64,000 nucleotides of DNA from an uncultured Gammaproteobacteria bacterium (lineage in GTDB: Bacteria > Patescibacteriota > Microgenomatia > Daviesbacterales > UBA10151). The translations under genes were made by a program, and so were the position numbers. Of the stretch, positions 2,414 through 54,214 are shown piece after piece; the first letter of the stretch is position 1; the number at the start of each line of letters is the position of its first letter. The stretch covers positions 3,671 to 67,670 of the forward strand of contig CAYOOO010000006.1 in NCBI GenBank assembly GCA_964405655.1. The letters run 5' to 3'. The notes below the pieces were generated by a model. It saw nothing but the letters and a program-made list of their open reading frames with translations. It searched no databases and was not told the origin of the DNA.

Positions 2414-3973
2414 GTGAAGTTGATTAGAAAATATAAGTTTGAAATCCTTACCTTTTTAGTTGTCTCTATAGTCTACTTTGCTGCTAGAATCCCAAATTTG
2501 ACTTTGCAGCCTATTTTTGCAGATGAGGCAATTTATGTTAGATGGGCCCAAGTGATGAGAGCTGAACCTACTCTAAGGTTTTTACCCCTGTCTGATGGGA
2601 AAACACCCTTATTTATGTGGACTATGATCCCCCTTTTTAAAATTTTTTCTGACCCCCTCTTTGCTGGCAGGTTTTTATCTGTTATCTCAGGATATTTTAG
2701 CTTAATAGGGGTACTCTTTTTAGGCTGGAAGTTTTTTGGTGAGCAACTTACTCTATCAGGTAAAAGAGTTGGATTTTTAGCAGCAGCCTTGGTTGCTATT
2801 ACCCCCTTTATGGTCTTTTTTGACAGAATGGCTTTAGTGGATTCAATGTTGGCAGCTTTTTCTATCTGGTCTTTGAATTTAGCAATTTACCTGATTAAAT
2901 CTCCCAGATTAGATGTCTCAATGTTTTTAGGTTATGCACTGGGTGGAGGAGTCTTAACCAAACCACCTGGCTTTTTTAATGTACTCTCTCTCCCCCTTAC
3001 TCTATTCTTATTTAATTGGAAGGACAAGGAAAGACAGAAAAATATTATTAGAATTTTTGGATATTGGCTAATAGCTATTTTTATATCCCTAGTTATCTAT
3101 AATGTTTTAAGATTAGGACCAGGTTTTGTTAATTTAAACTCAAGAAATCAGGACTATGTTAGGTCTCCTGGAGAATTATTAATTAGACCTTGGGATCCGC
3201 TGCTGCCCCACTTTAGAGATTTAGTGGGTATTAGTTTAAGTTTTTTTGGGTTACCTATTTCCCTGGCTATTATTTTAGGAATTTTAATGGCTTTAATTAA
3301 AAGAAATAGCCTGTCAATTACTATTTTACTTTGGGCTCTCTTTCCTCTAATTGTTCAGATGGTCATACTCAAAACTTTTACTGCCCGCTATGTACTTTTT
3401 TCTTTGCCTCCCCTATTGACTTTGGCTGCATGGGCTATTTTGGAAATTTTTAATCTTAAATTTTTTAAGTTGATTTATTTTAGAGTAGCTTTGCTTATAA
3501 TAATTATTGCTTGGCCTGTTTACTTTTTAGGAACTCTTTTAACTAACCCTGAATCTGCACCTCTTTTTAGGAATGAGAGAAGAGGTTACTTAGAAGACTG
3601 GACTGCAGGTTATGGATTAAAAGATATTGCCCAGTTCTTAGACCAAAAGTCTAAGGAAGGTTTTGTAGTTGTGGGAACTGAGGGAAGTTTTGGAACACTA
3701 CCCGATGGACTACAAATTTATTTAGATAGAAATAGGCAGGTGGCAGTGGTGGGAGGAAGAGCAACTGTTTCAGCTCAATTGCGACAAGCCTCAACTGAGC
3801 ACCCAACTTATTTTGTTACCAATAAATCCCGTTATCAAATTTTAGATAGGGAAATTGAATTGATTAAAGAGTACAAAAAAGCTGTCCCAACAAATAGCGA
3901 ATTTATGCAGGATGCAATGTTACTTTTTCAAGTATTTCCCCTAAAAGAAGCTTCTCCCTCAGCTAAGAATTAA
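2414..3973 (+). CDS. GT-C fold membrane glycosyltransferase, PMT/ArnT-like (GT39/GT83-type), divergent member; GTG start
   Basis: Polytopic membrane protein with 'FADEAIYVRWAQ' DE motif in the first extracytoplasmic loop, as in ArnT/PMT; C-terminal soluble domain. Confidence 0.6.
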   Translation: MKLIRKYKFEILTFLVVSIVYFAARIPNLTLQPIFADEAIYVRWAQVMRAEPTLRFLPLSDGKTPLFMWTMIPLFKIFSDPLFAGRFLSVISGYFSLIGVLFLGWKFFGEQLTLSGKRVGFLAAALVAITPFMVFFDRMALVDSMLAAFSIWSLNLAIYLIKSPRLDVSMFLGYALGGGVLTKPPGFFNVLSLPLTLFLFNWKDKERQKNIIRIFGYWLIAIFISLVIYNVLRLGPGFVNLNSRNQDYVRSPGELLIRPWDPLLPHFRDLVGISLSFFGLPISLAIILGILMALIKRNSLSITILLWALFPLIVQMVILKTFTARYVLFSLPPLLTLAAWAILEIFNLKFFKLIYFRVALLIIIIAWPVYFLGTLLTNPESAPLFRNERRGYLEDWTAGYGLKDIAQFLDQKSKEGFVVVGTEGSFGTLPDGLQIYLDRNRQVAVVGGRATVSAQLRQASTEHPTYFVTNKSRYQILDREIELIKEYKKAVPTNSEFMQDAMLLFQVFPLKEASPSAKN

Positions 3974-5400
3974 TGGATTTACAAGAACTAAATAAACGAC
4001 TAATATCTGGATTTTTAACTTTAACTTTTAGAAGGGCTGCGCTTTACGCCATCAGATTTGCAACCATTAATTTAATTTTGGCTAGGATTTTGGAGCCAGG
4101 AGTTATTGGTATTTTTAATATTGCTAATTCGATCCTTGCCTTCTTTACTTTTTTTTCTGATATAGGACTGGCAGCAGCGCTGATTCAAAAAAAAGAGCTT
4201 AGTAAAGAAGATTTAAAAACAACCTTTACTATACAAGTAATTTTGGCTGGTTTGGTCAGTTTAATGGTTTGGATAATTGCTCCAATCATTGCGCCTTTTT
4301 ACTCACTAGATAGTAGTGGTATTTGGTTGGTGAGGGCTCTGAGCATTGGCTTTTTACTTACTTCATTCAAAGTTCTCCCGTCAGTTTTACTTGAACGGGA
4401 ATTAAAATTTGGACCATTAGTTTTTGTTGAAATAGTGGAAACTTTAGCTTTTTGCTCAAGCTTGATTTGGCTAAGTTTTTCTGGATTTGAGATCAACGGA
4501 TTTAGCATCTCGACTCTTTTGCAAAGTATTACTGGGGTAATATTAATCTACACCATTGCTCCTTGGAGAATCTCTTTAGGTTTCTCAAAAGCTGCTGCTA
4601 AGTCATTATTAAATTTTGGTATCCCTTTTCAACTTAATTCAATACTGGCACTTTTAAAGGATAGATTAGTGCCATTGGTAATTGCTAATATTGTTGGTCC
4701 AACAGGAGTAGGCTTTATTACTTGGGCTCAAGGAATAGCCTTTTTACCACTTGAGGTAATGAACATTATTATCAGAATTACTTTTCCAGCCTTCTCAAGA
4801 TTACAGGATGATCGGAGGTCTCTTAAGCTAACTTTAGAAAAATCGCTTTTTGTAACAGCACTTTTTTTATACCCACTTTTATTTGGACTGTTGGCAATTG
4901 CCCCCTCACTTGTTAAAGAAGTTGTCTCAAGTAAATGGCAGCCAGCTTTACCGTTAATTTATCTTTTCGCAGTTAATACTTTTTGGGCAACTCTTTCGAC
5001 TGTTTTTACAAATGTTCTAAACTCTATTGGGAAGATTAGTATCACCTTAAAATTAATGATTTTTTGGACGATCATCACTTGGTTACTGACACCACCACTA
5101 ACGCTTATCTTTGGTTTTATTGGAGTTGCCATTGCTTCGGCGATTATTTCTTTTACCTCACTTTTACCAATAATTATTATCAAAAAAATTATTAATGTTG
5201 AGATTGTCAAAAGTATCTGGCAACCAATTTTGGCCTCAGCAGTTATGGCTCTAGTAGTTTACTTGTTCTCATCAATCTATGTTAGAAACCTTCTTGAACT
5301 TTTGGTGGTAGTTTTAATGGGTGGATTTATTTATCTTCTACTAATAATTATAATTGCTCAAAAAGCCATCAAAGAAAATATCGGACAGTTTAAAATATAA
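3973..5400 (+). CDS. MOP-superfamily polysaccharide/oligosaccharide flippase (Wzx-like)
   Basis: 475 aa, about 12-14 TM segments; N-terminal 'polysaccharide biosynthesis protein' style sequence ('...IRFATINLILARILEP...GIFNIANSILAFF...'); overlaps upstream stop by 1 nt. Confidence 0.6.
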   Translation: MDLQELNKRLISGFLTLTFRRAALYAIRFATINLILARILEPGVIGIFNIANSILAFFTFFSDIGLAAALIQKKELSKEDLKTTFTIQVILAGLVSLMVWIIAPIIAPFYSLDSSGIWLVRALSIGFLLTSFKVLPSVLLERELKFGPLVFVEIVETLAFCSSLIWLSFSGFEINGFSISTLLQSITGVILIYTIAPWRISLGFSKAAAKSLLNFGIPFQLNSILALLKDRLVPLVIANIVGPTGVGFITWAQGIAFLPLEVMNIIIRITFPAFSRLQDDRRSLKLTLEKSLFVTALFLYPLLFGLLAIAPSLVKEVVSSKWQPALPLIYLFAVNTFWATLSTVFTNVLNSIGKISITLKLMIFWTIITWLLTPPLTLIFGFIGVAIASAIISFTSLLPIIIIKKIINVEIVKSIWQPILASAVMALVVYLFSSIYVRNLLELLVVVLMGGFIYLLLIIIIAQKAIKENIGQFKI

Positions 5401-11264: not shown

Positions 11265-12227
11265 ATGAGCAAATCAGATTTATCAGTGATAGTACCATTT
11301 TATAATGAAAATAAAAATCTGGGACAGCTGCATCAAGAACTAATAGAGGCTTTGAATAAGCTAGATATCAAAAATGAAATAATCTATGTTAATGATGGAA
11401 GCAGCGATGATTCTATCAAAACTCTTAATCAAGCGATTTCAGATACTAAATCTTTAAATGATGTGAATATAAGCTTAATATCTTTCAGGAGAAATTTCGG
11501 TCAAACAGCTGCAACTTCTGCGGGAATAGATTATGCTAGAGGTAACTTAGTTGCTTTTCTAGATGCTGATTTACAAAATGACCCTAAAGATCTAGTTAAA
11601 TTCTATGGTGAAATTCAACAAGGTTACGATGCAGTCTTTGGTTGGAGAAAAGAAAGAGAGGATTTTTTCTTAAGAAACTTTGCATCTAAAATAGCTAACT
11701 TTATTATTAGGAAAATTTTTCAAATCCCGCTGCATGATGTAGGTTGCTCTCTAAAAATTGTCAAAAAAGAAATCTTAGATGATATCCATCTTTATGGAGA
11801 GTCTCATCGAATTATGCCAGTTTTAATTTACTGGAAGGGAGTTAAAATAAAAGAATTAGTTACAAATCATAGAAAACGACTTTTTGAGAAATCAAAATAT
11901 GGTTACTCAAGGATATTAAAGTTAGTCATAGATCTGATTACTCTTAAATTTTTAAATTCTTATGGAACTAAACCCGCTTATGTTTTTGGTGCGGCTGGAA
12001 TACTAAGTAATGTATTAGGATTTATTACTCTTGTCTGGGTAGGCTACCAAAAAATATTTTTGCAAATTTATGTTCACAGAAACCCACTGTTTCTAATCTC
12101 AATTTTTTTTGTATTACTTGGAGTCCAATTTGTATTAATGGGGCTTTTGGCAGAACTTTTGGTCAGGACTTATTTTGAGTCCCAGAAAAAAACAACCTAT
12201 GAGATTAAAGAGGTAAAAACTTTTTAA
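11265..12227 (+). CDS. Polyprenol-phosphate sugar synthase (GT2, Dpm1/GtrB/ArnC-like) with two C-terminal TM helices
   Basis: 'LSVIVPFYNENKNL', 'YVNDGSSDDS', 'DADLQNDP'; C-terminal hydrophobic helices, the typical GtrB/ArnC architecture. Confidence 0.7.
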   Translation: MSKSDLSVIVPFYNENKNLGQLHQELIEALNKLDIKNEIIYVNDGSSDDSIKTLNQAISDTKSLNDVNISLISFRRNFGQTAATSAGIDYARGNLVAFLDADLQNDPKDLVKFYGEIQQGYDAVFGWRKEREDFFLRNFASKIANFIIRKIFQIPLHDVGCSLKIVKKEILDDIHLYGESHRIMPVLIYWKGVKIKELVTNHRKRLFEKSKYGYSRILKLVIDLITLKFLNSYGTKPAYVFGAAGILSNVLGFITLVWVGYQKIFLQIYVHRNPLFLISIFFVLLGVQFVLMGLLAELLVRTYFESQKKTTYEIKEVKTF

Positions 12228-14050
12228 TGTGTGGTATTACAGGAATTGTTGACTTCTCCTCCCAACCTAAGAAAACTGCTTTGATTAAGAGTCTTAACAA
12301 GATAACTCATCGTGGTCCTGATTCCTCAGGTTGTTACATTGATAAAAATGTTGCCTTAGGAGTTAGAAGACTAAGTATCATCGACCTTAAGACTGGAGAT
12401 CAACCAATCAGTAACGAGGATAACTTAATAACTATTGTCTTCAATGGCGAGATCTATAATTTTAAGTCACTCCGACAGATGCTTGTTGAAAAGGGTCATA
12501 AATTCAAAACTAAGACTGATACAGAGGTGTTGGTTCATCTTTATGAGGTTTATGGAGATTCTATGATGAAATTTCTTAATGGAATGTTTGCCTTTGCAAT
12601 TTGGGATAAGAAAAAAAATAAACTGTTCATCGGCCGGGATCATGCAGGTATTAAGCCTTTATATTATCTAAAGCAAGGCAGTAAGATTTTTTTTGGCTCT
12701 GAGGTTAAAACAATTTTAAGCTTTTTAAATGGTTCTCCTTCTGTAAATAACGAGTCATTAGCACTGTACACTTTCTTAGGATATATCCCTGGGGATAATT
12801 CTATCTTTGAGGGAATCAAGAAACTTCCCCCAGGACATTATCTGACTTTTGATAAGAATGGTTTAAAATTAGTTAAATATTATCAAGTAAAAATTAATCA
12901 GAAAGCAAAAATAGAGAAGCTGGATGATCTATTGAAAGATGCAGTCAGTCTTCAATCCGTCGCTGATGTACCACTGGGGGTTTTTTTAAGTGGTGGATTA
13001 GATTCATCAATTGTTACCTATTATTTGACTATGCTGAAGCATAATGTTAAGACTTTTTCTATTACTTTTGAAGAAGGTAGTTTTGACGAAAGTGAGTATG
13101 CACTACTTGTTGCTAAAAGGTTGCAAACTAAACACTACCAGGATAGTTTTTCAGTTAACGAAATTCCTAATCTATTTGACAAAATAACCGATCAACTTGA
13201 CGAGCCTTTATCTGATCCTTCACTATTTCCAACATTTAAAGTATCAGCTCTTGCCAAAAAAAACGTTAAAGTTGCCTTAAGTGGAGATGGGGGAGATGAG
13301 CTTTTTGGAGGATATCCAACATATCAAGGACATATTTTGGCAGAAAGATTTAAGTGGATCCCAAAAGCTTTTTTAGATAATTTAACAAAAAGCTTGAAAA
13401 TTCTTCCGAGAACCTTCGAAAACTTTCCTACAAAGGAAGTTTTAACTAGTTTTTTGTTAGGTATATCAAAACCAGCCGCCCAAAGACACATTTTTTGGAT
13501 GAGTCTGTTCTCTCAAGGCCAAAAAGAGCTTTTAGATATCTCTAAAACAAATTGGTATAAAAAAGAAATCTTATCCTTAAAGGGGGAGCAAGAAGATCTC
13601 CTGAAAAAAATGCAGCTTTTAGACTTTAATACTTATTTAGCTGATGATCTTTTAACCAAAGTTGACCGAGCATCAATGATAAACTCACTAGAAGTCAGAG
13701 TCCCTTTTTTAGATCCCAGAATTATTGAATTTGCTTATGGAAGCTCTAAAAATCATGTAGATTTACTTGTAACTAAGAAACATTTGAGAAATCTTTTAAA
13801 GGATCTTTTTCCTAAAAGTATTACCAAAAGGAAGAAAAAAGGCTTTGGCATCCCACTCTCAAAATGGCTTTGTTTTGAGCTAAAAGATTTAGCATATGAT
13901 CATCTAAAAAGCAAAAAATTGAACAACTTTTTTAAACCTACAGTAATTGAACGAGTTTGGAAAAATCATCAGGAAGGTAAAGAAAATAATGCCAAGATTA
14001 TTTGGATGTTGGTGATGTTTAGCAGTTGGTTAAGTAAGTGGAGTAACTAG
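12227..14050 (+). CDS. asnB: Asparagine synthetase (glutamine-hydrolysing) family amidotransferase
   Basis: N-terminal 'MCGITGIV' Ntn amidotransferase nucleophile; 'SGGLDSS' PP-loop ATP pyrophosphatase motif; 607 aa. Confidence 0.85.
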   Translation: MCGITGIVDFSSQPKKTALIKSLNKITHRGPDSSGCYIDKNVALGVRRLSIIDLKTGDQPISNEDNLITIVFNGEIYNFKSLRQMLVEKGHKFKTKTDTEVLVHLYEVYGDSMMKFLNGMFAFAIWDKKKNKLFIGRDHAGIKPLYYLKQGSKIFFGSEVKTILSFLNGSPSVNNESLALYTFLGYIPGDNSIFEGIKKLPPGHYLTFDKNGLKLVKYYQVKINQKAKIEKLDDLLKDAVSLQSVADVPLGVFLSGGLDSSIVTYYLTMLKHNVKTFSITFEEGSFDESEYALLVAKRLQTKHYQDSFSVNEIPNLFDKITDQLDEPLSDPSLFPTFKVSALAKKNVKVALSGDGGDELFGGYPTYQGHILAERFKWIPKAFLDNLTKSLKILPRTFENFPTKEVLTSFLLGISKPAAQRHIFWMSLFSQGQKELLDISKTNWYKKEILSLKGEQEDLLKKMQLLDFNTYLADDLLTKVDRASMINSLEVRVPFLDPRIIEFAYGSSKNHVDLLVTKKHLRNLLKDLFPKSITKRKKKGFGIPLSKWLCFELKDLAYDHLKSKKLNNFFKPTVIERVWKNHQEGKENNAKIIWMLVMFSSWLSKWSN

Positions 14051-14814
14051 CGCTTCTTTGATAAAATTGCCCAGGATATTGAGTTAACTGGAGATATTTT
14101 TAGTATTTCTAATTTATCACTTGTAAAAAGCTTTTTGACCTCTTCTTTTTTCCAGTAATTAGCGATTTTGGGAAGGAGTTGATCTAGGACAATTGTATGG
14201 ATATGCCAAAACCAAAACTGTTTTAACTGAGCCAAATACTCATTTTTTTGGGGAAAGAGCTTAAGATAAAGATAGAATGGAACAGAAAAGAAGTAGGCAA
14301 TCAGATTAGTTATACTTGGAGGAATATGAGAAGTGAAGGCCCTAATAGGGTTAATAAACTTAATTTTCAATTTATTACCCTCATATCCATAAACCCAGCA
14401 AATTAACTTTCCGCCTTTCTTAGTTGCCTTGATTAAATTTTCTATAGCCTTCTTTGGGTTTTCCAGATGGTGTAATACTCCTATACAGATAGTAAGGTCA
14501 AACTCCTCTTTATAGTCGATATCATATATTGATACCCAATCAACCCTGGCATTCTTGAAATTAGCTAAATTTTCTCTTGCCACCTCAACAGTGTGTTTAT
14601 CAACATCAAAGGCAACAACAGATTTTGCCCCGTAATAAAGTGGCCAATAACTATTCCTGCCAGTGCCACAACCAGCATCCAAGACCTTTTTATTTTTGAT
14701 ATTAAGTTTTCTTAAAGGAGTAATCCACTTTAAGAATTGTTGTTCGTAAGCTGGGATTATTTTTGGATAATTGACCCATTCAAAACTAAATCTATCGGCA
14801 GAGCCCATAAACAA
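14047..14814 (-). CDS. Class I SAM-dependent methyltransferase
   Basis: Motif I 'VLDAGCGTGRNS'; sole minus-strand gene inside the long plus-strand array. Confidence 0.7.
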   Translation of the reverse strand: MFMGSADRFSFEWVNYPKIIPAYEQQFLKWITPLRKLNIKNKKVLDAGCGTGRNSYWPLYYGAKSVVAFDVDKHTVEVARENLANFKNARVDWVSIYDIDYKEEFDLTICIGVLHHLENPKKAIENLIKATKKGGKLICWVYGYEGNKLKIKFINPIRAFTSHIPPSITNLIAYFFSVPFYLYLKLFPQKNEYLAQLKQFWFWHIHTIVLDQLLPKIANYWKKEEVKKLFTSDKLEILKISPVNSISWAILSKKR

Positions 14815-14963
14815 GATTTTAACATAATATACTCGTCTAACTCGAGTTTGCAGCTCTCATTAGCTGATTATGTACCAAAAATATTGGTTATAAGTTACAA
14901 ATTAGAGTATTTTGGGTATAAGCCTTCGCATTTTAAATATCAGTTTAGTACAATCAATTTAAG

Positions 14964-16661
14964 TTGACCAGGAAACATTTTTTAGTTCTAGGTTTAATTT
15001 TACTACTGGCTCTTTTTCTACGTGTTTATCAGCTAAACAAAGTACCGATTGAGCTTTTTGGTGATGAGATAGATGTTGGTATTCAAGCTTACTCTATTTT
15101 AAAAACTGGCAAAGATTATTTAGGTAACTCCTTTCCTGTCATGTTTCAGTCTTTTGATGAGAGTAGATTACCCCTTTTAATTTATTCAGCTGTACCTAGT
15201 GTTGCCCTTTTTGGTTTAAATGAATGGGGAGTCAGACTACCTGCCTCAATCTTTGGAGTTCTCTCAGTTGTTGGAATATTTTTAGTTGCAAGGAAGCTTT
15301 TCAATTTTAAAGTAGCTATTATCTCTGCTGTTTTACTTACCATCTCTCCTTGGAATTTACATTATTCAAGATGGTCTAATGATGCCATAAGTTTATTAGG
15401 ACTAGTTTCTTTTGGGACCTATTTCTTTTTACTCGGTTTAAGAAGATTTAGCATCCTTGTTATCTCAGCAATATTTTTCTCCTTAACATTATATGCTTAT
15501 TCAATCTCGGCTGTTTTTCTGCCCCTATTTCTATTACTACTTTTATTTTTATATTGGAAAGATCTAGAGAAAATCTCAAAAACTAAATTAATCTCTTTAG
15601 CTTTTATCTTGATAGTTCTAGTGCTTCCCTACATATATTATTCGATTAATGGTCCAGCTTCTGAAAGATTTTCTAAAATATCCATTTTTGCTGATCAGAA
15701 AATATTGGATAAAGCTACAGAAAGTCAGGCCCAAGATAGCTCTATCTCGACTAAGCTATTTCGAAATAAATTCACCCTTATGTTTAATAAAATTTCAGAA
15801 AATTATATAGAATCTTTCTCTTCTCAGTTTCTTTTCACCAGGGGAGATCCTAACTTTAGACATGCTATTGCAGAGATGGGACAGATGTATTTATTTGAAG
15901 CTCTTTTTCTGATTCTTGGTCTGTCTATCTTTGCTAAAAATATTTATCAAAAAAAAGTATTGGAAAATAAAGAGATAATGTTAATCTTAGGATGGATACT
16001 GATTGCCCCTGTAGCTGCTGCTTTAACTAAAGAAGGTGGAAATCATAATGCCAGGGTGATCTTAATGCTACCTCCACTGGTAATAACTACAGCACTGGGG
16101 ATTCAGTTATTGTTAAGTTTTAGATCTCAACTCAAGTTTAAATTAATATTTGTTTTTATCTCATTTTTGGCCGTTTATAACATCTTTAGTTATTTTTATA
16201 GATACTATAATGAATGGTCTTGGCAAAGTTGGCGTTTCTGGCAATTAGGATATAAAGAAGCAATAACTTATATAAAAGAAAATGAATCCAGTTACAACCG
16301 GATATTTTTCAACAGTACTTATGAACCTGCCTTACCTAGATTTTTATTCTGGTACCAATTTGACCCAAAAGAATTTCAAAAACTTTTTACTGGTAAAGAT
16401 AGAAAGGAGCAATTAGTAAAGGGTTTTAATGGGTTTTCCTTAGGAGATAAATACTATTTTGGGATAGTTTCTAAACTTATCTCAGATCAAGGATTTGTTG
16501 AGCTTTTGGGAAAAGAAGATGTGTACATGGTTAGTCAGAGAGATGAAGTAGGAACAATAGATTGGACTAAAGATCCTCCCAAAGGACTTAATATCTTAAA
16601 AGTGATTTATAATCCCAAACAAGAACCAATCTTTTATATAGTTACTAAAAAGGAGAGTTAA
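14964..16661 (+). CDS. GT-C fold glycosyltransferase, PMT/ArnT-like, tandem paralog family member 1 (TTG start)
   Basis: 'ELFGDEIDVGIQAYSILKTGKDYLGN' DE-loop motif; about 11 TM helices; conserved C-terminal soluble domain 'WSWQSWRFWQLGYKEA'. Confidence 0.7.
   Translation: MTRKHFLVLGLILLLALFLRVYQLNKVPIELFGDEIDVGIQAYSILKTGKDYLGNSFPVMFQSFDESRLPLLIYSAVPSVALFGLNEWGVRLPASIFGVLSVVGIFLVARKLFNFKVAIISAVLLTISPWNLHYSRWSNDAISLLGLVSFGTYFFLLGLRRFSILVISAIFFSLTLYAYSISAVFLPLFLLLLLFLYWKDLEKISKTKLISLAFILIVLVLPYIYYSINGPASERFSKISIFADQKILDKATESQAQDSSISTKLFRNKFTLMFNKISENYIESFSSQFLFTRGDPNFRHAIAEMGQMYLFEALFLILGLSIFAKNIYQKKVLENKEIMLILGWILIAPVAAALTKEGGNHNARVILMLPPLVITTALGIQLLLSFRSQLKFKLIFVFISFLAVYNIFSYFYRYYNEWSWQSWRFWQLGYKEAITYIKENESSYNRIFFNSTYEPALPRFLFWYQFDPKEFQKLFTGKDRKEQLVKGFNGFSLGDKYYFGIVSKLISDQGFVELLGKEDVYMVSQRDEVGTIDWTKDPPKGLNILKVIYNPKQEPIFYIVTKKES
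15024..15241 (+). repeat. 218-bp segment 100% identical to 16719..16936 (copy A, inside paralog 14964..16661)
   Basis: Direct base-by-base comparison of the two regions; flanking bases differ on both sides. Confidence 0.9.
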
Positions 16662-18350
16662 GTGAAGTTTAAACTTTTTTCTTTAGGATTAATACTTTTA
16701 ATAGCTTTAATACTCAGAGTTTATCAGCTAAACAAAGTACCGATTGAGCTTTTTGGTGATGAGATAGATGTTGGTATTCAAGCTTACTCTATTTTAAAAA
16801 CTGGCAAAGATTATTTAGGTAACTCCTTTCCTGTCATGTTTCAGTCTTTTGATGAGAGTAGATTACCCCTTTTAATTTATTCAGCTGTACCTAGTGTTGC
16901 CCTTTTTGGTTTAAATGAATGGGGAGTCAGACTACCAAGCGTCTTCTTTGGGATGCTATCACTGATTGGAATCTATTTATTAACAAGACAGCTTTTTAAC
17001 AGTAAAACTGCCTTATTTGCACTAATACTTCTGGCTATTTCTCCCTGGCATTTACAAATCAGTAGGCAAGCAAATGATGCAACCGTTATCTTACCAGTAA
17101 TGTTATTTGCTATTTGGTTTTTTTTGTTGGGTCTTAAAAGATACTTATTGTTAATAATTTCTGCAATCCTATTTGCCTTAACTTTTTATACTTATGCAAT
17201 TGCTGCAATATTTACTCCTTTAATAGTTATTTGTTTGTCAATACTTTTTTATAGACAGTTTTTAAAGTTAGGTTTGTTAAAAATAACAATGGTTCTGTTA
17301 GTAGGATTTATTATATTACTACCTTATTTAAGTTTATATGTGAGTGGAAAAGCCTCAACTAGATTCTCAACTATTTCAGTCTCCTCGGATAAAGGTATTA
17401 ACGATAAAATATTCACATACCGTAGAAGAGCCGACTCATCCTTTACTCCGCTAATTTACAACAAACCATCTGTTTACTCGGACGAGATTATTAAAAATTA
17501 CCTTAAAGCTTTTTCATCAGAATTTCTATTTGTGATTGGAGATCCTAACTTACGGCATTCAGTCGGAGGATTAGGTGAATTCTACTTATTTACCTTAGCT
17601 GGGTTAATACTAGGGATATTTTTTATTGTCAACAACTTTAATGGAAAGTACAAAACTTCTTTTAAAATTTTGGCTGTCTGCTTAATTTTAGCACCAGTTC
17701 CTGCATCGCTTACTAGAGATGGTGGTTACCATGCTCCCAGATTGTTTTTGTTATTACCATTTCTGGTAATAATTATATCACTTGGTATTAATTATTTAAC
17801 AGGGCTTAAAAGAAATATTTTTATCAAAGGATTATATTTATTAACCGGGTTTCTAATAGTAGTAAATCTAATAGGATATTTTTACAGATATTATATTGAG
17901 TGGTCAAAAGACAGCTGGAGATTCTGGCAGCTAGGATATAAAGAAGCATTGACCTATTTAAAAGAGAATGATTTAAAATATTCAAAGATTTACATTAACA
18001 ATACTTACGAGACTGCCTTGCCCCGATTTCTATTTTGGTATAACTATGATCCTGTTAGGTTTCAGCAAGTTTATCAAGGTAATAAAACAAAGGCTGATAT
18101 AGTTGATGGATTTGAGGGTTTTAAGTTTGATGATAAATATTATTTTGGTACCAAAACTGACAAGAGGATTGAAGATTTAATAGGTGAGAATGAAGTTTAT
18201 CTGGTAAGTTACAGAGATGAAACGGGACTCACAGATTGGAGAAAACAGCCACCTAATGGTTTAAAAGTTTTAAAGACAATTACCAATCCGTTTGACCAAC
18301 CGATATTTTTCATAGTAACCAAAGGAACAACACCGGATAAAAATGAATAA
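16662..18350 (+). CDS. GT-C fold glycosyltransferase, PMT/ArnT-like, tandem paralog family member 2 (GTG start)
   Basis: N-terminal 73 aa identical to the previous gene and then diverging; same TM architecture and C-terminal 'WSKDSWRFWQLGYKEA' domain. Confidence 0.7.
   Translation: MKFKLFSLGLILLIALILRVYQLNKVPIELFGDEIDVGIQAYSILKTGKDYLGNSFPVMFQSFDESRLPLLIYSAVPSVALFGLNEWGVRLPSVFFGMLSLIGIYLLTRQLFNSKTALFALILLAISPWHLQISRQANDATVILPVMLFAIWFFLLGLKRYLLLIISAILFALTFYTYAIAAIFTPLIVICLSILFYRQFLKLGLLKITMVLLVGFIILLPYLSLYVSGKASTRFSTISVSSDKGINDKIFTYRRRADSSFTPLIYNKPSVYSDEIIKNYLKAFSSEFLFVIGDPNLRHSVGGLGEFYLFTLAGLILGIFFIVNNFNGKYKTSFKILAVCLILAPVPASLTRDGGYHAPRLFLLLPFLVIIISLGINYLTGLKRNIFIKGLYLLTGFLIVVNLIGYFYRYYIEWSKDSWRFWQLGYKEALTYLKENDLKYSKIYINNTYETALPRFLFWYNYDPVRFQQVYQGNKTKADIVDGFEGFKFDDKYYFGTKTDKRIEDLIGENEVYLVSYRDETGLTDWRKQPPNGLKVLKTITNPFDQPIFFIVTKGTTPDKNE
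16719..16936 (+). repeat. 218-bp segment 100% identical to 15024..15241 (copy B, inside paralog 16662..18350)
   Basis: Direct comparison. Confidence 0.9.
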
Positions 18351-27430: not shown

Positions 27431-29109
27431 TGGGTATTCCTAAACTCCTCAAATCCCACCTTTTTTTGCTTATATTTCTAATAATTTTAGTTATACCGAC
27501 TTTCAATAGAATGTTTAAGCCTGGTATATTCACCATGCATGATTTTCATGTTTACAGGCTCTATGAATATGATAAATGTATTGCTGATGTTAAATTACCT
27601 TGTAGATGGGCTCCGGATAGCGCTTTTGAGTATGGTGAGCCAGTTTTTAACTACTACGCCCAACTTCCTTATTTATTTGGTGAAGTATTTAGATTTTTGG
27701 GTTTATCAGTTTTAGGCTCAATCAAGGCTTTATTTGTATCCTCTTTAGTATTTTCTGCTCTAGCCATGTTTTTTTTAGCTAGGCAGCTTTGGGGAAATAA
27801 TCTGGCTGCTCTTACTTCTGCTTTGGTTTATACGTATGCTCCTTATAGAGCTGTGGATGTTTGGGTTAGAGGTGCGCTGCCTGAATCTTTAGCATTTATC
27901 TTTTTCCCACTAATAACTTACTTTTTTAATGACTTTGTTTTAAAAAAGAAAACTATCTCACTTTTGCTGTTTGGACTGTCATTTTCAGCTTTGGTTCTAA
28001 CACATAACTTATCGGTATTTATGTTTCTGATTTTCTTTTCAATATGGGCAGTTTACTTTTTAACAAAACATCAAAGCTGGAAATTAGTTCCACAGTTTAT
28101 TGGTGTGGGTATTATAAGTTTTGGGCTGTCTGCTTTCTATATTTTACCAGTGATCTTTGAAAACAAATTAGTTACTTTAACGGAGACAACTGGAGGATAT
28201 TATGATTTTAAAAACCATTATGTCACACTAAATCAGTTGTTAATTTCCAGATATTGGGGTTATGGAGCATCTCTCTGGGGAGAGGATGATAGATTAAGTT
28301 TATCTGTGGGTCATGTCCAATGGGTAATCCCAATATTAATTGCTGTACTAGTTATCTTCAGAAGAAAAATTAAAAACTACTTCAGCTTCTTTGTTCTTTT
28401 TGGTTTAGGTTGGTTTATGTTGTTTTTAACTCATAACAAATCAACACCACTCTGGGACATTTTTGCTCCATTAAGATTTGTCCAATTTCCTTGGAGATTT
28501 TTAGGTTCAGCAGTTTTTATCTTTGCACTTTCGACTGGGGCACTTCTGACTTTGTTTAAAAAACCACTTCTTAATATTTTAATATCATTGATAGTTATCG
28601 GAATAGTTATTGGTTTAAATACTCCTTTTTATTTTGAGGATATTTGGCAGTCATTTGATGATAAACAGTTTTTCTCAGGCAAAAATTACGAAATGCAAGT
28701 GGGCTCAGCAATCTACGATTTTTGGCCCAAAACTGCTGGAAAAGAAGTGCCTTCAACCTTTGCACCCAAAGATCCAATTTTTAAAGAAGGGAGTGGATCA
28801 GGAAAACTGATTGAGAAAAAAAGTCACAGTGCCAAGTACGAGTTAGAGATTAAGAGCAATCAAGCAGAGATTTCTTTCCCCATTGTTTACTTTTCTGGTT
28901 GGGTTGCTTATTCAAATGACCAAAAGTTAGAAATCTATCCAAAAGATAAATATGGACTTATTACTACTAGACTGATTCCTAAGGATAAGATAATAACCTT
29001 AGAATTTAAAGATACCTTAGTTAGACAGATTGGTAATACTCTAACCTTAATTTCACTCTTTACATTTATATCAGTTTTTACTCTTCTTAGAAGAAAAGAA
29101 AAAAAATGA
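27430..29109 (+). CDS. Polytopic membrane protein, stand-alone paralog of the C-terminal domain of 19977..22445 (YfhO-like GT-C candidate)
   Basis: 'MHDFHVYRLYEYDKCIADVKLPCRWAPDSAFEYGEPVFNYYAQLPYLFGE' aligns with 'MHDDLQAMRQLVIDKCFKDGQIPCRWSVDLGYGYGYPLFNFYPPLPYYFGQ'; at least 12 TM helices. Confidence 0.6.
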   Translation: MGIPKLLKSHLFLLIFLIILVIPTFNRMFKPGIFTMHDFHVYRLYEYDKCIADVKLPCRWAPDSAFEYGEPVFNYYAQLPYLFGEVFRFLGLSVLGSIKALFVSSLVFSALAMFFLARQLWGNNLAALTSALVYTYAPYRAVDVWVRGALPESLAFIFFPLITYFFNDFVLKKKTISLLLFGLSFSALVLTHNLSVFMFLIFFSIWAVYFLTKHQSWKLVPQFIGVGIISFGLSAFYILPVIFENKLVTLTETTGGYYDFKNHYVTLNQLLISRYWGYGASLWGEDDRLSLSVGHVQWVIPILIAVLVIFRRKIKNYFSFFVLFGLGWFMLFLTHNKSTPLWDIFAPLRFVQFPWRFLGSAVFIFALSTGALLTLFKKPLLNILISLIVIGIVIGLNTPFYFEDIWQSFDDKQFFSGKNYEMQVGSAIYDFWPKTAGKEVPSTFAPKDPIFKEGSGSGKLIEKKSHSAKYELEIKSNQAEISFPIVYFSGWVAYSNDQKLEIYPKDKYGLITTRLIPKDKIITLEFKDTLVRQIGNTLTLISLFTFISVFTLLRRKEKK

Positions 29110-30716
29110 AAAAATTATTAATTTTTCTAATCATATTATTCATCAGTGTTTTTTTTAGATTTTATAAACTAAATGATTTTCCTCCAAGTTTAAATTGGGA
29201 TGAGGTTTCTTTAGGTTACAACGCCTACTCAATTTTAAAGACTGGCAAAGATGAATGGGGACAGTTTTTACCATTAACCTTTAGAGCTTATGGAGATTAT
29301 AAATTGCCTATTTATATTTATGCAGACGTTCCTTTTGTTGCCCTGTTTGGTTTAAACGAGTGGGGAGTTAGACTCCCTTCTGCTTTAGCAGGATTAGGGA
29401 TTGTGTGTTTAGTTTTTCTAATAATTAAAAAAATAACAGGAAAAAATGATTTAGCACTTTTGGGGATGTTTTTTTCAGCGACATTACCTTGGCTGGTAAT
29501 CTTTTCTAGAATTGCCCTTGAGGCAAATCTAGCACTTCTGTTATTTGTTGCCTCATTTTATTTTTTTATTTTAAGCGAAGAGAAAAAGTACCATCTTATA
29601 ACTTCAGCAGTGCTACTAGGATTATCTTTATTTACTTATAATAGTGCCAGAGTATTGGTTTTACCATTCATAATACTTGTGAGTATACTTTTTTGGAAAT
29701 CGTTTAAAGAAAAATTTAAGTTTTCCTTATTGTCTCTTTTTATCATTATTGCCTTTTTTATTATCGCTTTTCCTCTGGCTATTTTGCAGGACTCGTCTGC
29801 TAGATACAGATGGACCACAATTTTAGATGAAGGAGCTATACAAAGAATCAATGAATTAAGAGGGTCTTCAGCACTACCGCCAATTGCTTCTAAGCTGGCA
29901 TTTAATAAATTGACTTATTTTATTCCTGAGGCTTTTAAAAACTATTTGACTCACTTTAATGCTGATTTTTTATTCCTTAATGGTGGATCGAATTATCAAT
30001 ACTCAGTTCCAGGTAGTGGTTTAGCTCCAATCGTCTTACTCCCCTTGCTAATTTTAGGAATTTTTCAAGTTTTTAGGAAAAAAACAAAATGGCAATATTT
30101 AGTTTTGGGTTGGTTGCTTCTGGCGCCAACACCAGCTGCTATTACTAGAGATGCACCTCACGCATTGAGAACTATTTTTATGAGTGTACCGCTGATAATA
30201 ATTTCCTCCTTAGGTGTTCTATTTATAATTGAGAATTTAAAAATAAAAAAAGTTTTTGTTTATTCCTTTCTTCTAGCAGCAGTACTTATTACTACAACTA
30301 GTTTCTGGATTAACTATACAAAAGTTTATACCAAAAAATATTCCTGGTCATGGCAGTATGGATATAAGCAAGTAATAAATTTTATAAATAAGCAAGGTAA
30401 TAACTATGACAAGATCTACCTTAGTAAAAAGTATGGTGAACCACATGAATTCTTATTGTTTTACTTAAAATATGATCCAAATAAGTATAGGAACGATTCT
30501 AAATTAATTAGATATAAGCGTTCAGATTGGTATTGGGTAGATCAATTTGATAGGTTTGAATTTATAAATGACTGGGAAGTAACTGAAAAAGTTAAAATTA
30601 AAACTGGCAAAGACTTGTTAATAACCAGCCCCGGAAATTACCCAGTTAAAGCTAAGCTAATTAACAGAATCAAATTTCTGGATGGGCAAGATGCTTTTGA
30701 TATTGTTGAACTATGA
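29106..30716 (+). CDS. GT-C fold glycosyltransferase, PMT/ArnT-like, paralog family member 4
   Basis: 'SLNWDEVSLGYNAYSILKTGKDEWGQFLPL...FGLNEWGVRLPSALAG'. Confidence 0.7.
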   Translation: MKKLLIFLIILFISVFFRFYKLNDFPPSLNWDEVSLGYNAYSILKTGKDEWGQFLPLTFRAYGDYKLPIYIYADVPFVALFGLNEWGVRLPSALAGLGIVCLVFLIIKKITGKNDLALLGMFFSATLPWLVIFSRIALEANLALLLFVASFYFFILSEEKKYHLITSAVLLGLSLFTYNSARVLVLPFIILVSILFWKSFKEKFKFSLLSLFIIIAFFIIAFPLAILQDSSARYRWTTILDEGAIQRINELRGSSALPPIASKLAFNKLTYFIPEAFKNYLTHFNADFLFLNGGSNYQYSVPGSGLAPIVLLPLLILGIFQVFRKKTKWQYLVLGWLLLAPTPAAITRDAPHALRTIFMSVPLIIISSLGVLFIIENLKIKKVFVYSFLLAAVLITTTSFWINYTKVYTKKYSWSWQYGYKQVINFINKQGNNYDKIYLSKKYGEPHEFLLFYLKYDPNKYRNDSKLIRYKRSDWYWVDQFDRFEFINDWEVTEKVKIKTGKDLLITSPGNYPVKAKLINRIKFLDGQDAFDIVEL

Positions 30717-51066: not shown

Positions 51067-52284
51067 ATGCCTTTAGCAGAGCAGCTTGTAGTTCATAGAA
51101 GAAACCTCGTAGATTCAAAACCAGATTTATACGTTCCAATTAATCTTTTTGATCCATTCGGTGAAATTTTAGGAGCCAGAGAAGGTAGGAAAAGATTGCT
51201 TTGGGGTTTTAGAGATGCTGGGGCTGCAGCCGCAGGTCTTCCAGTAATACGAGCCTTGCAGCAAGAAGCAGTTGATGTTTTTATCTTAGCAGATGGTCCT
51301 GCTCGTGATGCTTTAGAGAAAGACCCGCTTTATACAGAGACAAGATTGGTAAAGAATTTAGGTTGGACAATAACTGGACTCGGCCAAGATATAAGCATAT
51401 TAGGCCATGCAGTCAAACCTGATGTAGAACAAATTTTAACTGCTCATGCTAAGTATATAGGGATACCTACAGTTTGGTATGAAGATATGCCACCTTTCTT
51501 AGGCTTTTACAAAAGAGGCTTAGCTGCTGAAGGAAATTTATTTATCCCAGAAAGAATCTTTTGTTTCTCAGAAACTTCAGCTCAGCAAGAAATTGGATAC
51601 ATCCCACAGTTTGTTAGAAGAACAGTAGTAGTGGGAAACCCTGCTTTTGACAGATTTGCAGATATTGATGTAACAGGGATTAGACAGCGGACAAGAACTG
51701 GACTAGGGGTTGAGAGTGATGAGACCTGGTTTGTTTGGATGGCGACAAAAACTAGGGCTACTTTTGAATCATGTAGAGATTTTGTTGAAGGCATAAAAGC
51801 TTTGGATTTAGAACACTACCGTTTTAGTGCCAGAATACATCCAGCTGAAGCTAAAGATCCATTAGTCAAGGCAGAATATGATCAACTTCTTAAAACATTA
51901 GGTCGACATGCACTTGAAACAACTGGCTACTCAACAGATGATGTAGGAACTGCAGCAGATATAGTTGGAGGTGATACATCCACTGCTATTTTTGAGGCAA
52001 CACTAAATGATGTTAGAACTGTCACGCTCCTTATTCCTGAGAATATGGTCTTAAGGGATGAATGGGTAGAAGAACTTCCTCCTGATCCAGCAATTGTTTT
52101 AGATGGTACCAGTCCTGTGGTCAGAAGAAGAGATGATGTTAAAGATGTGTTACTTAAAGTGACTTCGGATAGTGAAACACAAGAAATGTTAAGGCAAAAA
52201 AGACAAGTTTGGAGAAAAGTTGTTGGTGGAGCGACTGAAAGATTCAAAGACAGATTGTTAGAAATTGCTTCTTCTAATAGTTAG
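51067..52284 (+). CDS. Hypothetical GT-B-like protein, candidate divergent UDP-GlcNAc 2-epimerase (NeuC/WecB-like); noticeably higher GC than neighbours
   Basis: 405 aa; 'VVVGNPAFDRF' placed like the WecB/NeuC 'GN-x-x-DA' segment; Ala/Arg-rich composition unlike the rest of the window. Confidence 0.3.
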   Translation: MPLAEQLVVHRRNLVDSKPDLYVPINLFDPFGEILGAREGRKRLLWGFRDAGAAAAGLPVIRALQQEAVDVFILADGPARDALEKDPLYTETRLVKNLGWTITGLGQDISILGHAVKPDVEQILTAHAKYIGIPTVWYEDMPPFLGFYKRGLAAEGNLFIPERIFCFSETSAQQEIGYIPQFVRRTVVVGNPAFDRFADIDVTGIRQRTRTGLGVESDETWFVWMATKTRATFESCRDFVEGIKALDLEHYRFSARIHPAEAKDPLVKAEYDQLLKTLGRHALETTGYSTDDVGTAADIVGGDTSTAIFEATLNDVRTVTLLIPENMVLRDEWVEELPPDPAIVLDGTSPVVRRRDDVKDVLLKVTSDSETQEMLRQKRQVWRKVVGGATERFKDRLLEIASSNS

Positions 52285-53057
52285 ATTTTGATTAGTTTCT
52301 TCTGCAGTAGTAATTCTGCCAGTAAAATATCATTAAGATTATCTATATCTAGCGCATCATCCTTATCCAGCATGACGTATCTGACCCTTTTGCCTGTTAG
52401 CAATCCCTCTTTCATCAAAACATTATATTTGACTGCTATTACATCAACATGGGCAAAAGCTGGAGGAAAAGATTGTCTGGGTGCATTTGAAGGCTCTTTT
52501 AACCCCGTCACTTCTTTGGGAATAAAAGGTTTTAGCTCGTTCCCATCTATCCTCCAAAGCTTATAAGGATGTTTAGGCGCACTTTTAATAGTTCTTGAGG
52601 AGGTTGCAATTGGGTCATCAATCAGCAGTTGAATGCAAGCATCAATTGATTCAGTTTTACAAAAAGGAGTTGTTGGGGGAAGTCTTAAAATAATATCTGC
52701 TTTCCATCCCTCATTTTCCTCAAGCCATTTGGTCGCATGCTGCAGATATGAGATATCATCAGCACTATCGTCTGAAATTTCCTTGGGTCGTAAAAAAGGC
52801 GCTTCAGCTCCATAAAGTTTGGCTATTTTGGCAAATTCTTCTGAATCAGTAGAAACTATGAGACGGCTGACCAATTTAGATCTTTTAGCAGATTCAATAA
52901 TCCAGGCCATCAAAGGTTTACCAGCTAAAGGATAAATATTTTTATAGGGAATGCTTTTTGAACCAGACCTTGCTCCAACTACACCCAAAACTTTCAACTG
53001 CTTATCTGAAAGAAAACTTTGCTTATCTGAATTAGATTTCATAAAGAAGAATTTCAA
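52281..53057 (-). CDS. CMP-nonulosonic acid synthetase family cytidylyltransferase (NeuA/PseF/KdsB-like)
   Basis: 'LGVVGARSGSKSIPYKNIYPLAGKPLMAW' matches the NeuA-family N-terminal motif. Confidence 0.7.
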   Translation of the reverse strand: MKFFFMKSNSDKQSFLSDKQLKVLGVVGARSGSKSIPYKNIYPLAGKPLMAWIIESAKRSKLVSRLIVSTDSEEFAKIAKLYGAEAPFLRPKEISDDSADDISYLQHATKWLEENEGWKADIILRLPPTTPFCKTESIDACIQLLIDDPIATSSRTIKSAPKHPYKLWRIDGNELKPFIPKEVTGLKEPSNAPRQSFPPAFAHVDVIAVKYNVLMKEGLLTGKRVRYVMLDKDDALDIDNLNDILLAELLLQKKLIKI

Positions 53058-53122: not shown

Positions 53123-54214
53123 ATGAGTTCAGCAGAGTTATTTGGGCCAAACTCACATAGTCAATATAAAGTAGGTTGGGTGGAAATTGATAATTCTGTT
53201 AAAGATGAGGTAACAGCCGTTTTGTTGAATTGTTATCTATTTTCAAATGTTTCTCTAGCTAGTATTAAAGAGGTTGATGCTTGGGAAGTCATAAGCAAAA
53301 ATTATCGAGCACAAGTTATTGATGAAAGTGGTGACCGTAGAGATGTTGTACTGCACAAATTTTTAAGATTAAAAGATCCACAAACGATCAGGATATCCGG
53401 AGAGATAATAACTTTTCTACATAGAGAAGGAATAAAAGTACCGGAAATTGTGCGGACTGAAGGGAAAACGGATAGCTTTACTCAATACCAAGAAAATTGT
53501 TATCGAGTTTTTGAGTTTGTTGAAGGCGATCATTTTCGTGGAACCAAATCGGAACTTAAAGATTTTGCAGGCAACCTAGCTGCTTTTCATAAAACCCTGG
53601 AACATGCACCTTATCAGTCAGAACTTGCCTTAAGGCCAGCAGTTTCAGCAGCATGGGATATAGAAGGTTGGAGAGAATTGTTCGGTAGGGCAAGATCTGG
53701 TGAGAGTCCAATAGCTGGTCTGGTTTTATCGAGTAAAGATTTGATATTGGAGCAAGCCCAATTTATTAGTCAAGGTTTATGTCAACCATTTAATTTTAGA
53801 ACCCAAATAATCAGGGGCGATCTTCACCCTCATGACACAATTTATCAGAAAGGGAAACTTAGAGCTTTAGTGGATTTTGATGATATGAGAGTTGGCGAGT
53901 TAATGAGAGATGTTACTACAGCCTGTCATAGATTTGTTAGACAATTTATAGTTTATCAAGGTAGAGATTGGGAGGAGACTCTGGCTTTGGGTTTGGATCT
54001 TTTTGTCAATGAATATCTAAAAGTTAATTTGATATCAGACGCTGAGATTAGTGCAGGAGCTATCTTTATTGCTGATGAGTTATTAAGGAAGATTTATCGG
54101 GATCTTAATAAATATTATTTAGCAGGACAGACTCAATACTTAAGCGGAGGAGAGTTGGAAAAAAGACTTACGTTGCTTCAAGAATCAAAGATTATTAGTC
54201 AATATTTAAGATAA
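53123..54214 (+). CDS. APH-fold (aminoglycoside phosphotransferase/choline-kinase-like) small-molecule kinase, paralog 1
   Basis: 'IIRGDLHPHDTIY' (HxD catalytic loop) and 'VDFDDMRVGELMRDV' (Mg-binding D). Confidence 0.65.
   Translation: MSSAELFGPNSHSQYKVGWVEIDNSVKDEVTAVLLNCYLFSNVSLASIKEVDAWEVISKNYRAQVIDESGDRRDVVLHKFLRLKDPQTIRISGEIITFLHREGIKVPEIVRTEGKTDSFTQYQENCYRVFEFVEGDHFRGTKSELKDFAGNLAAFHKTLEHAPYQSELALRPAVSAAWDIEGWRELFGRARSGESPIAGLVLSSKDLILEQAQFISQGLCQPFNFRTQIIRGDLHPHDTIYQKGKLRALVDFDDMRVGELMRDVTTACHRFVRQFIVYQGRDWEETLALGLDLFVNEYLKVNLISDAEISAGAIFIADELLRKIYRDLNKYYLAGQTQYLSGGELEKRLTLLQESKIISQYLR

Follow-up and report, generated by a model that had tools for sequence, protein, structure and literature searches.

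A probable recent gene conversion between two anciently diverged, tandem GT-C glycosyltransferase paralogs of a Microgenomates-type genome

Two adjacent genes for predicted GT-C glycosyltransferases, here called A and B, share a block of 218 identical nucleotides, while their synonymous sites are saturated everywhere else. The best explanation, to which we assign a probability of roughly 0.8, is one ectopic gene conversion of a short tract, recent on the evolutionary scale, between these tandem, anciently diverged paralogs, in which about 218 nucleotides of gene B would have replaced, non-reciprocally, the corresponding part of gene A, with both reading frames left intact. The genes belong to the glycosylation island of a genome of the Microgenomates type (Patescibacteria/CPR), within the 64-kb stretch of DNA that was analysed (the window). 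Such a conversion tract is an ordinary, known kind of bacterial gene evolution and does not amount to a new kind of system.

The identical block

The first copy of the block (15024..15241, forward strand) covers codons 21–93 of gene A, the probable recipient, and the second copy (16719..16936, forward strand) covers codons 20–92 of gene B, the probable donor. Direct comparison of the two copies gives 218 identities in 218 positions, and the match cannot be extended by a single nucleotide in either direction. The base-for-base identity described in an earlier, sequence-only reading of this DNA is therefore exact, the next base differs on both sides as it had said, and the peptide it quoted for the block agrees with the translation. 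Both copies are in frame within their genes and have the same (direct) orientation, with a start-to-start spacing of 1695 nt. They are separated by a unique segment of 1477 nt (15242..16718, forward strand), made up of the 3' part of gene A and the first 19 codons of gene B. In a repeat search and in self-blastn, the pair is by far the strongest repeat of the window.

In a codon-aligned profile of the two genes, nucleotide identity and third-position identity are both 1.00 inside the block. Outside it they are about 0.55 and 0.35, respectively, with an amino-acid identity of 45%. The genes are thus homologous over their full length, and the earlier description of their flanks as completely diverged was too strong; comparable identity along the whole gene pair, which that reading had named as evidence against conversion, is absent. 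The profile of synonymous divergence that it had proposed as a check comes out in favour of conversion. Inside the block, the NG86 method gives dN = dS = 0 (72 codons, 48 synonymous sites); outside the block dN is about 0.49, while dS is not computable or is larger than 1.3, indicative of saturation.

When the codon columns of the A/B alignment are permuted, the 99th percentile of the longest identical run is 26 nt, and 0 of 2000 permutations reach the 218 nt observed. Given identical amino acids and the codon usage of the window, the probability that all 72 codons are the same is 9e-29. Six genes of the family (A, B and four from other genomes) were compared over the same region, where they show nucleotide identities of 58–76%, use the same codon at 35–53% of the positions and have longest exact runs of no more than 14 nt. 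With this probability and these short runs, chance and constraint at the protein level are both excluded as the cause of the identity of the block.

Family and fold of the paralogs

Gene A (14964..16661, forward strand; database protein P0001) encodes 565 amino acids, gene B (16662..18350, forward strand; P0002) encodes 562 and gene C (18343..19968, forward strand), a third tandem GT-C paralog that is about 30% identical to A and B, encodes 541. The GTG start codon of gene B abuts the stop codon of gene A and is preceded, 7 nt upstream, by an AAGGAG motif. All three products match the Pfam family PMT_2 (A with an E-value of 1.3e-12 and 48.6 bits, B with 3.5e-16 and 60.3 bits, C with 42.3 bits) above the curated cut-off of 26.1 bits; gene C also matches PMT.

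The AF2 model of the gene A product has a pLDDT of 95.7 and a pTM of 0.93. Its best Foldseek matches are AglB, STT3, ArnT, PglB and PMT, and all 29 PDB matches with an E-value of at most 0.001 are GT-C enzymes (AglB, STT3, ArnT, PglB, Pmt and ALG9), with query-normalised TM-scores of 0.30–0.54. A and B are thus predicted to be glycosyltransferases of the GT-C fold, belonging to the PMT_2 family and resembling ArnT and PMT. They share PMT_2 membership with the ArnT, PMT and oligosaccharyltransferase structures (PDB entries 5ezm/5f15, 7e9s, 6gxc and 6p25), with which the predicted fold of gene A agrees at a Foldseek probability of 1.00, and they also have the invariant acidic pair in the first external loop (D34/E35, in 121 homologues). 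However, the solved structures are only 10–16% identical in sequence to the paralogs described here, and the soluble carboxy-terminal domain (residues ~440–565) is specific to this Microgenomates family.

In gene A the block corresponds to residues 21–93, which are predicted to form the end of the first transmembrane helix, the first extracytoplasmic loop with its catalytic-type Asp-Glu pair, the second transmembrane helix and the start of the next helix. Among the 121 homologues, G33, D34 and E35 are invariant and D37 is nearly so; in the model these residues are located at the start of a helix (residues 33–48) that follows the first transmembrane helix. The assignment of the block to a catalytic "DE loop", made in the sequence-only reading, is thus borne out.

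Phylogeny, gene order and probable direction of transfer

Inside the block, A and B are sisters in 100% of the neighbour-joining bootstraps; outside the block they are sisters in 0%, and A groups with P0003, P0005, P0008 and P0047. The excess of identity is thus bounded, includes the synonymous sites and is accompanied by tree incongruence, as in a gene-conversion tract. With a dS of 0 against saturation, opposite tree topologies, two intact genes and no alternative element, the earlier proposal of a recent gene conversion or segmental recombination holds up.

At the protein level, the identity of the block is 83% to P0009 and P0011, which are B-type orthologues, and 68% and 60% to the A-type proteins P0003 and P0047, respectively; the block does not contain the states V29, R50, H55 and T76 of the A-type clade. 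Gene order separates the two types as well: the gene for the A-type P0047 is preceded by genes for a GT2 protein and AsnB, the same as gene A, while the gene for the B-type P0009 is followed by an orthologue of gene C (57% identity) and an orthologue of an 822-residue GT2-PTPS protein (68% identity), in the same order as after gene B. As the block is nearer to the B-type than to the A-type orthologues, B probably overwrote A. Support for this direction is moderate, because the A-type clade has a bootstrap support of 55% and its members are on long branches. The GC content of the block (0.358) is typical of the homologous region in other paralogs (0.367–0.385), which rules out a foreign origin.

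Short identity with gene C

Gene C shares an exact run of 31 nt (18456..18486, forward strand) with both copies of the block (15086–15116 in A and 16781–16811 in B), encoding AYSILKTGKD. An identity of 30 nt with a third paralog had been pointed out before; it exists, located at 18457–18486 and not at 18461–18490, and the full run is one nucleotide longer. The 99th percentile of permuted alignments of A and B with C is 18 nt (P < 1/2000), and from codon usage the run has a P of 1.4e-4. Constraint on the AYSILKTGKD motif at the nucleotide level was considered and rejected, because its codons differ among the paralogs of other genomes. The run is possibly a second, short conversion patch. A further run of 20 nt is shared by gene C and the paralog at 29106 (P = 0.0015). 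The block itself is common to two of the seven aligned PMT_2 paralogs of the window, A and B, and the four paralogs outside the A-B-C trio resemble these two no more than background.

Mechanism and alternative explanations

The conversion may have occurred by RecA-type heteroduplex repair or by template switching, and the exchange was probably anchored in two nucleotide-conserved islands of the most conserved part of the gene. As the exchanged module is the conserved catalytic core of the family, the swap would have been near-neutral. Before the event the exact identity between the genes would have been at most about 14 nt, which is too little for canonical RecA exchange and counts against the explanation.

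The earlier warning of an assembly hazard is reasonable, but an artefact of assembly or consensus is improbable. In such an artefact, copies that are merely similar, or that come from different strains, would have become identical when bubbles were collapsed, when multi-mapped reads were used for polishing or through a chimeric join at a shared repeat. The source is a single contig of a metagenome-assembled genome from one assembly, and its relatives in the same database carry the "NODE_" names of SPAdes-type co-assemblies, which come from assemblers that collapse small variants; a repeat of 218 bp exceeds common k-mer sizes and creates a loop in a de Bruijn graph, which is resolved heuristically. 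A and B each occur as a singleton protein, both from one NCBI contig, and the next homologue is 49–52% identical; an exact 41-mer has 0 matches in metagenome contigs, and an exact-protein look-up of B and P0001 revealed no identical copy. With singleton proteins and a 41-mer that the metagenome collection does not contain, both the exact identity and the tandem layout rest on one assembly. However, only sequences that already share long k-mers can be merged by collapse, and exact runs between native family members do not exceed 14 nt here; each gene must therefore really have a block of very high similarity. The assembled path is also the only one that uses all four unique flanks, both reading frames are full-length, in frame and colinear with their homologues throughout, and the junction of A and B has a normal arrangement of stop codon, Shine-Dalgarno sequence and start codon; at most, an artefact would lower "100%" to "nearly 100%". 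It is very improbable that the identity is due to selection at the nucleotide level (for a promoter, a binding site or an RNA embedded in both genes) or was produced by a diversity-generating retroelement (DGR) or another mobile element. Sigma-70-like hexamers are present on the minus strand within both copies, but promoter-like sites are not enriched (21 found, 25.5 expected) and a promoter and terminator scan gave nothing above background. The block matches no Rfam family, its RNA fold is no more stable than that of shuffled sequences (z = +0.59), and elsewhere the paralogs and orthologues differ freely in their synonymous codons over this region. CPR genomes commonly contain DGRs. However, their template and variable repeats differ at adenines, while the block copies are identical at all 218 positions, and no reverse transcriptase, recombinase, integrase or transposase was found by Pfam in the 55 window reading frames of at least 120 amino acids that were scanned, nearly all of that size in the window (8 of the 55 gave no match of any kind). 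The repeats are direct and the window has no recombinase domain, unlike a site-specific inversion system or shufflon. A very recent duplication of A and B, followed by extremely fast divergence of everything outside the block, would fit the adjacency and common orientation of the genes, but it is scarcely credible: the synonymous sites outside the block are saturated, and in other genomes the A and B types form separate orthologue groups, each with its own conserved neighbours. The saturation and the trees rule out a recent whole-gene duplication.

It is also unlikely, to about the same degree as an artefact, that the block is a maintained recombination module or hinge, at which repeated conversion and unequal crossing-over delete, duplicate and re-pair parts of GT-C genes. 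If it were, RecA-mediated unequal exchange would re-pair the large, specificity-determining remainder of these genes, providing heritable variation of surface glycans for tiny, episymbiotic-type bacteria, and the array would be a glycosyltransferase counterpart of the lpl cluster of Staphylococcus aureus. In that cluster, all paralogs contain a central conserved region of 132 nt with an average identity of 88% (Tsuru & Kobayashi 2008, PMC2568036), and rearrangements have been documented in many strains (PMC2568036). The layouts are alike: both consist of tandem same-strand paralogs of a surface-related family, with a conserved stretch inside the reading frame, between variable regions (132 nt in lpl, 218 nt here; PMC2568036), that is usable for homologous recombination, and in both the natural unit reaches from the 3' part of one gene into the 5' part of its neighbour. 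The runs of 31 and 20 nt that involve gene C are consistent with repeated exchange, as are weak similarities of 48–58 nt (85–92% identity) that three relatives (L001, L022 and L051) have between their tandem paralogs, and the scarcity of identity for a first-time RecA exchange. However, where lpl has its conserved region in all members, the block described here is confined, at 100% identity, to two of the seven aligned paralogs, the four outside the trio being at background similarity, and it is located 20 codons from the amino-terminus and not centrally. An exchange would only re-pair the 20 amino-terminal residues with the remainder, with little combinatorial gain, and as no part of the protein is more conserved or more interchangeable than the swapped piece, little diversity would result. 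Self-blastn of each of 54 related loci (401 kb) revealed no repeat comparable to the 218-nt block, the best direct repeat within a locus being 58 nt long at 91% identity. A degenerate motif never matched twice in the same locus among 49 loci; a scan of genome contigs with the degenerate motif covered 17 loci, with the source genome not among them. The ongoing cassette shuffling suggested in the sequence-only reading thus finds no support: the window has one tract and one 31-nt patch, the four other PMT_2 paralogs do not have the block, neither recombinase, reverse transcriptase nor silent cassette was found, and the block neither occurs in most members of the array nor recurs in the 54 related loci.

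Comparison with known systems and implications

Ectopic gene conversion is known in bacteria from tufA and tufB of Salmonella and from rRNA operons. The conversion proposed for A and B is like these cases in being a non-reciprocal, short-tract copy between paralogs of one genome, with a tract that is identical at synonymous sites, diverged flanks and a tract tree in conflict with the rest. It differs in that the partners diverged very long ago (45% protein identity, saturated dS) and are not near-identical duplicates, and in that there is a single short island and not the homogenisation of a whole gene. Variable segments of Neisseria pilE and Borrelia vlsE are transferred from silent, promoterless cassettes (pilS in the case of pilE) into an expression site between conserved flanks. 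These systems have in common with the A/B conversion a segmental, non-reciprocal transfer within a genome that affects a cell-surface function; however, here a conserved core would have been moved and both partners are complete, expressed-type genes. No silent cassettes were found in the 64-kb window by repeat search or self-blastn. Cassette-based antigenic variation by gene conversion has been the subject of a mini-review (PMC4534519), conversion between paralogs has been described for the PE/PPE genes of Mycobacterium tuberculosis (PMC13061034, PMC12046097) and concerted evolution has been described in prokaryotes (PMC6053082). A literature search revealed no report of such a conversion for an uncultured genome of the Patescibacteria type.

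If the conversion is accepted, it is a clean, well-bounded ectopic event between very old paralogs in a genome of the candidate-phyla-radiation type. It would imply active recombination, homologous or by template switching, in genomes as reduced as this, and it would show the conserved catalytic module of these GT-C enzymes to be exchangeable from one paralog to another. Trees and orthologue groups of the family call for caution, because the 93 amino-terminal residues of A would carry the history of B. With a spacing of 1695 bp, the perfect direct repeats of 218 bp would be a substrate for deletion or duplication of a 1695-nt unit, composed of the 1477-nt unique segment and one copy of the block (that is, of the 3' part of A and the 5' end of B). 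Assemblies, and possibly the population, may therefore vary by a deletion or duplication of 1.7 kb.

Three tandem glycosyltransferase genes

Three tandem paralogs encode glycosyltransferases of the GT-C type: gene A (565 residues; 14964–16661), gene B (562 residues; 16662–18350, on the same strand as A) and gene C (18343–19968), which shares its first 8 nucleotides with the end of B. From its sequence, the A-B-C array looks translationally coupled and co-transcribed. All three proteins score above the curated cut-off of the Pfam family PMT_2. The structure of A predicted by AlphaFold2, with 121 homologues, has a pLDDT of 95.7 and a pTM of 0.93. At E ≤ 0.001 the model matches 29 PDB entries, all of which are GT-C enzymes (AglB, STT3, ArnT, PglB, Pmt and ALG9); a sequence-based PDB search returned ArnT as the sole match. 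Family homologues derive from metagenome-assembled genomes (MAGs) of Woese-, Davies-, Ames- and Shapirobacteria, which places the source of the window among Patescibacteria of the Microgenomates type. The GTG start codon of B adjoins the TAA stop codon of A, with an AAGGAG sequence 7 nucleotides upstream, inside A (16630–16680).

The identical block

Positions 15024–15241 in A and 16719–16936 in B are identical at 218 of 218 positions, with a mismatch at the first flanking base on each side, so that the 218-nucleotide identity described in the sequence-only reading is borne out and both its edges are sharp. In a repeat search and in a self-blastn comparison, the pair is by far the top-scoring repeat of the 64-kb window. 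The block encodes residues 21–93 of A, in the same frame in both genes, and runs from the last part of TM1 through the first external loop, which has a helix at residues 33–48, and TM2 (residues 70–83) into the beginning of the helix that follows. The loop helix contains the invariant residues G33-D34-E35 (121-homologue alignment and AlphaFold2 model of A), and family-wide conservation is highest in the block region. The 30-mer previously noticed in the third paralog does occur three times (15087, 16782 and 18457), its position in C having been placed four bases off; at full length, the exact run common to A, B and C is 31 nucleotides (18456–18486). Both copies of the block also contain an antisense sigma-70-like hexamer pair, ATGACA-16-AATAAT (10/12; 15142–15115 and 16837–16810), which is a consensus match only.

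This identity does not extend along the gene pair. In the remainder of the two genes, protein identity between A and B is 45%, nucleotide identity about 55% and identity at third codon positions about 35%. The Nei-Gojobori dN is 0.49 there and dS is saturated, while inside the block dN and dS are both zero (72 codons, 48 synonymous sites), with a rough 95% upper bound on dS of about 0.06 by our own arithmetic. In a comparison of six genes, namely A, B and four family members from other genomes, over the 73-codon region of the block, nucleotide identity is 58–76%, the same codon is used for the same amino acid in 35–53% of cases and exact runs do not exceed 14 nucleotides. With the codon usage of the window, 72 identical amino acids would agree in every codon with a probability of 9e-29, and codon-column permutation gives a 99th-percentile run of 26 nucleotides, against 218 observed. 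The identity of the block exceeds both chance and protein-level constraint.

History and probable direction of the proposed exchange

Neighbour-joining bootstrap trees were calculated for the block alone and for the alignment downstream of it (456 columns). In the downstream trees A and B are never sisters, and A joins the A-type homologues P0003, P0005, P0008 and P0047 at 55% support; in the block trees every bootstrap (100%) pairs A with B. In related locus L019, A-type P0047 follows a GT2 gene and an asparagine synthase gene, the same order as for A in the window. In L021, B-type P0009 is followed, as is B, by orthologues of C (57% identity) and of an 822-residue GT2-PTPS fusion (68%). These neighbourhoods agree with A and B being old paralogs. 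A recent whole-gene duplication is excluded by the saturated dS and the trees.

Outside the block, the nearest homologue of A is P0003 (46.6%) and that of B is P0009 (47.9%). The block protein sequence is 83% identical to the B-type homologues P0009 and P0011, 68% to P0003 and 60% to P0047, and lacks the A-type marker residues V29, R50, H55 and T76. Because it is B-like and without A-type residues, the block is probably B's native sequence pasted into A. Sequence comparison thus lends moderate support to a direction from B to A, in which the native B segment would have been copied over the corresponding stretch of A. Recent gene conversion between A and B, the main proposal of the sequence-only reading, is supported by the dS contrast, the conflicting trees and the perfect identity, and we assign it a probability of about 0.8.

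Other explanations

An embedded functional nucleic acid could also keep two copies identical, but this is unlikely: the block has no match in Rfam, its predicted RNA fold is no better than that of shuffled sequences (z = +0.59), the region shows no enrichment of promoter-like sites and its synonymous sites vary freely in other genomes. An assembly artefact, of which the sequence-only reading had warned, is to be kept in mind as a caveat, as A and B, both singletons, come from a single NCBI contig and an exact scan of a metagenome collection did not find the 41-mer of the block. However, graph collapse and polishing merge only nearly identical sequences, and native family members share no identity of k-mer length here; at worst, the true identity would be slightly below 100%. 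A diversity-generating retroelement is excluded, as Pfam searches of nearly all window reading frames of at least 120 residues gave no reverse transcriptase and the copies lack the adenine-specific differences expected of such a pair.

The proposed extension to programmed cassette shuffling, by which the loop would be swapped among paralogs, finds little support and was not borne out. The block is common to A and B only, and the other four PMT_2 paralogs that were compared with them are similar to both at background level. Within any one of 54 related loci, which total 401 kb and in several cases contain tandem GT-C genes, the strongest direct repeat is 58 nucleotides at 91% identity. None of 49 public loci contains the ELFGDEIDVG-encoding pattern more than once.

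Possible short-patch traces and initiation

The 31-nucleotide identity of A and B with C is improbable by permutation (P < 1/2000) and from codon usage (1.4e-4), and C shares an exact run of 20 nucleotides with the paralog at 29106–30716 (18475–18494 and 29241–29260; permutation P = 0.0015). Such runs hint at additional short-patch events around the AYSILKTGKD motif. Stretches of 48–58 nucleotides at 85–92% identity were observed within three related loci: L001 (11788–11841 and 13423–13475, adjacent tandem GT-C paralogs), L022 (15166–15213 and 16769–16816, adjacent tandem GT-C paralogs, same motif region) and L051 (905–962 and 1961–2017). Far weaker than the block, they may stem from exchanges that have since decayed or were very short. 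Judged from family members, uninterrupted identity at the start of the A/B exchange would have been at most about 14 nucleotides; either prior rounds of conversion may have kept the region similar, or a microhomology-based template switch may have copied the block.

Comparison with known systems

Ectopic gene conversion between paralogs is a well-documented bacterial process (PMC6053082), to which the A/B tract corresponds mechanistically. Its closest structural analogue is the lpl tandem paralog cluster of S. aureus, where every paralog carries a 132-nucleotide central conserved region at which recombination takes place, and where the unit of evolution extends over two neighbouring genes (PMC2568036). 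In contrast, the A/B case involves only two genes, with perfect identity and a site near the amino-terminus. No report of gene conversion in glycosyltransferase arrays of Patescibacteria was found in a literature search of incomplete coverage; the tract is a new instance of an event type already known. Its practical value is as a caution for phylogeny and assembly, and it marks a place where variation by deletion or duplication of 1.7 kb may occur.

The surrounding glycosylation island

The window is one large glycosylation island. It contains at least eight GT-C-type genes (PMT_2 at 2414, 14964, 16662, 18343, 29106, 30713, 32365 and 35867), YfhO/PTPS_related genes (27430 and 19977), about 12 GT2 and about eight GT4 genes, AsnB, SAM methyltransferases, sugar-nucleotide and nonulosonic-acid enzymes and a Wzx-like flippase (3973–5400). 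A CTP_transf_3 cytidylyltransferase (52281–53057) and a NeuB-family synthase (62293–63393), both on the minus strand, suggest a nonulosonic (sialic-like) acid pathway. Pfam searches of nearly all window reading frames of at least 120 residues gave no transposase, integrase, recombinase or reverse transcriptase.

Two neighbourhoods that lie apart in relatives are joined in region 11265–22445: GT2-AsnB-[A-type GT-C], found in L019 (7209–11641), and [B-type]-...-[C-type]-[822-residue GT2+PTPS_related fusion], found in L021 (10001–16383). A methyltransferase gene (14047–14814, minus strand) lies between AsnB and A. Among three APH-family phosphotransferase paralogs (53123–54214; 54245–55327, minus strand; 60298–61371), 53804–53959 and 60964–61119 match over 159 nucleotides at 74%, an ordinary paralog similarity. 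In seven related loci (L002, L005, L007, L010, L011, L013 and L018), which come from NCBI co-assembly MAG records with the title 'uncultured Gammaproteobacteria bacterium', the pattern encoding the family motif is present in exact form. The named homologues of the motif family are Microgenomates, a full homologue is confirmed in L007 (the P0011 contig), and the Gammaproteobacteria label on these seven records looks like a placeholder or an error.
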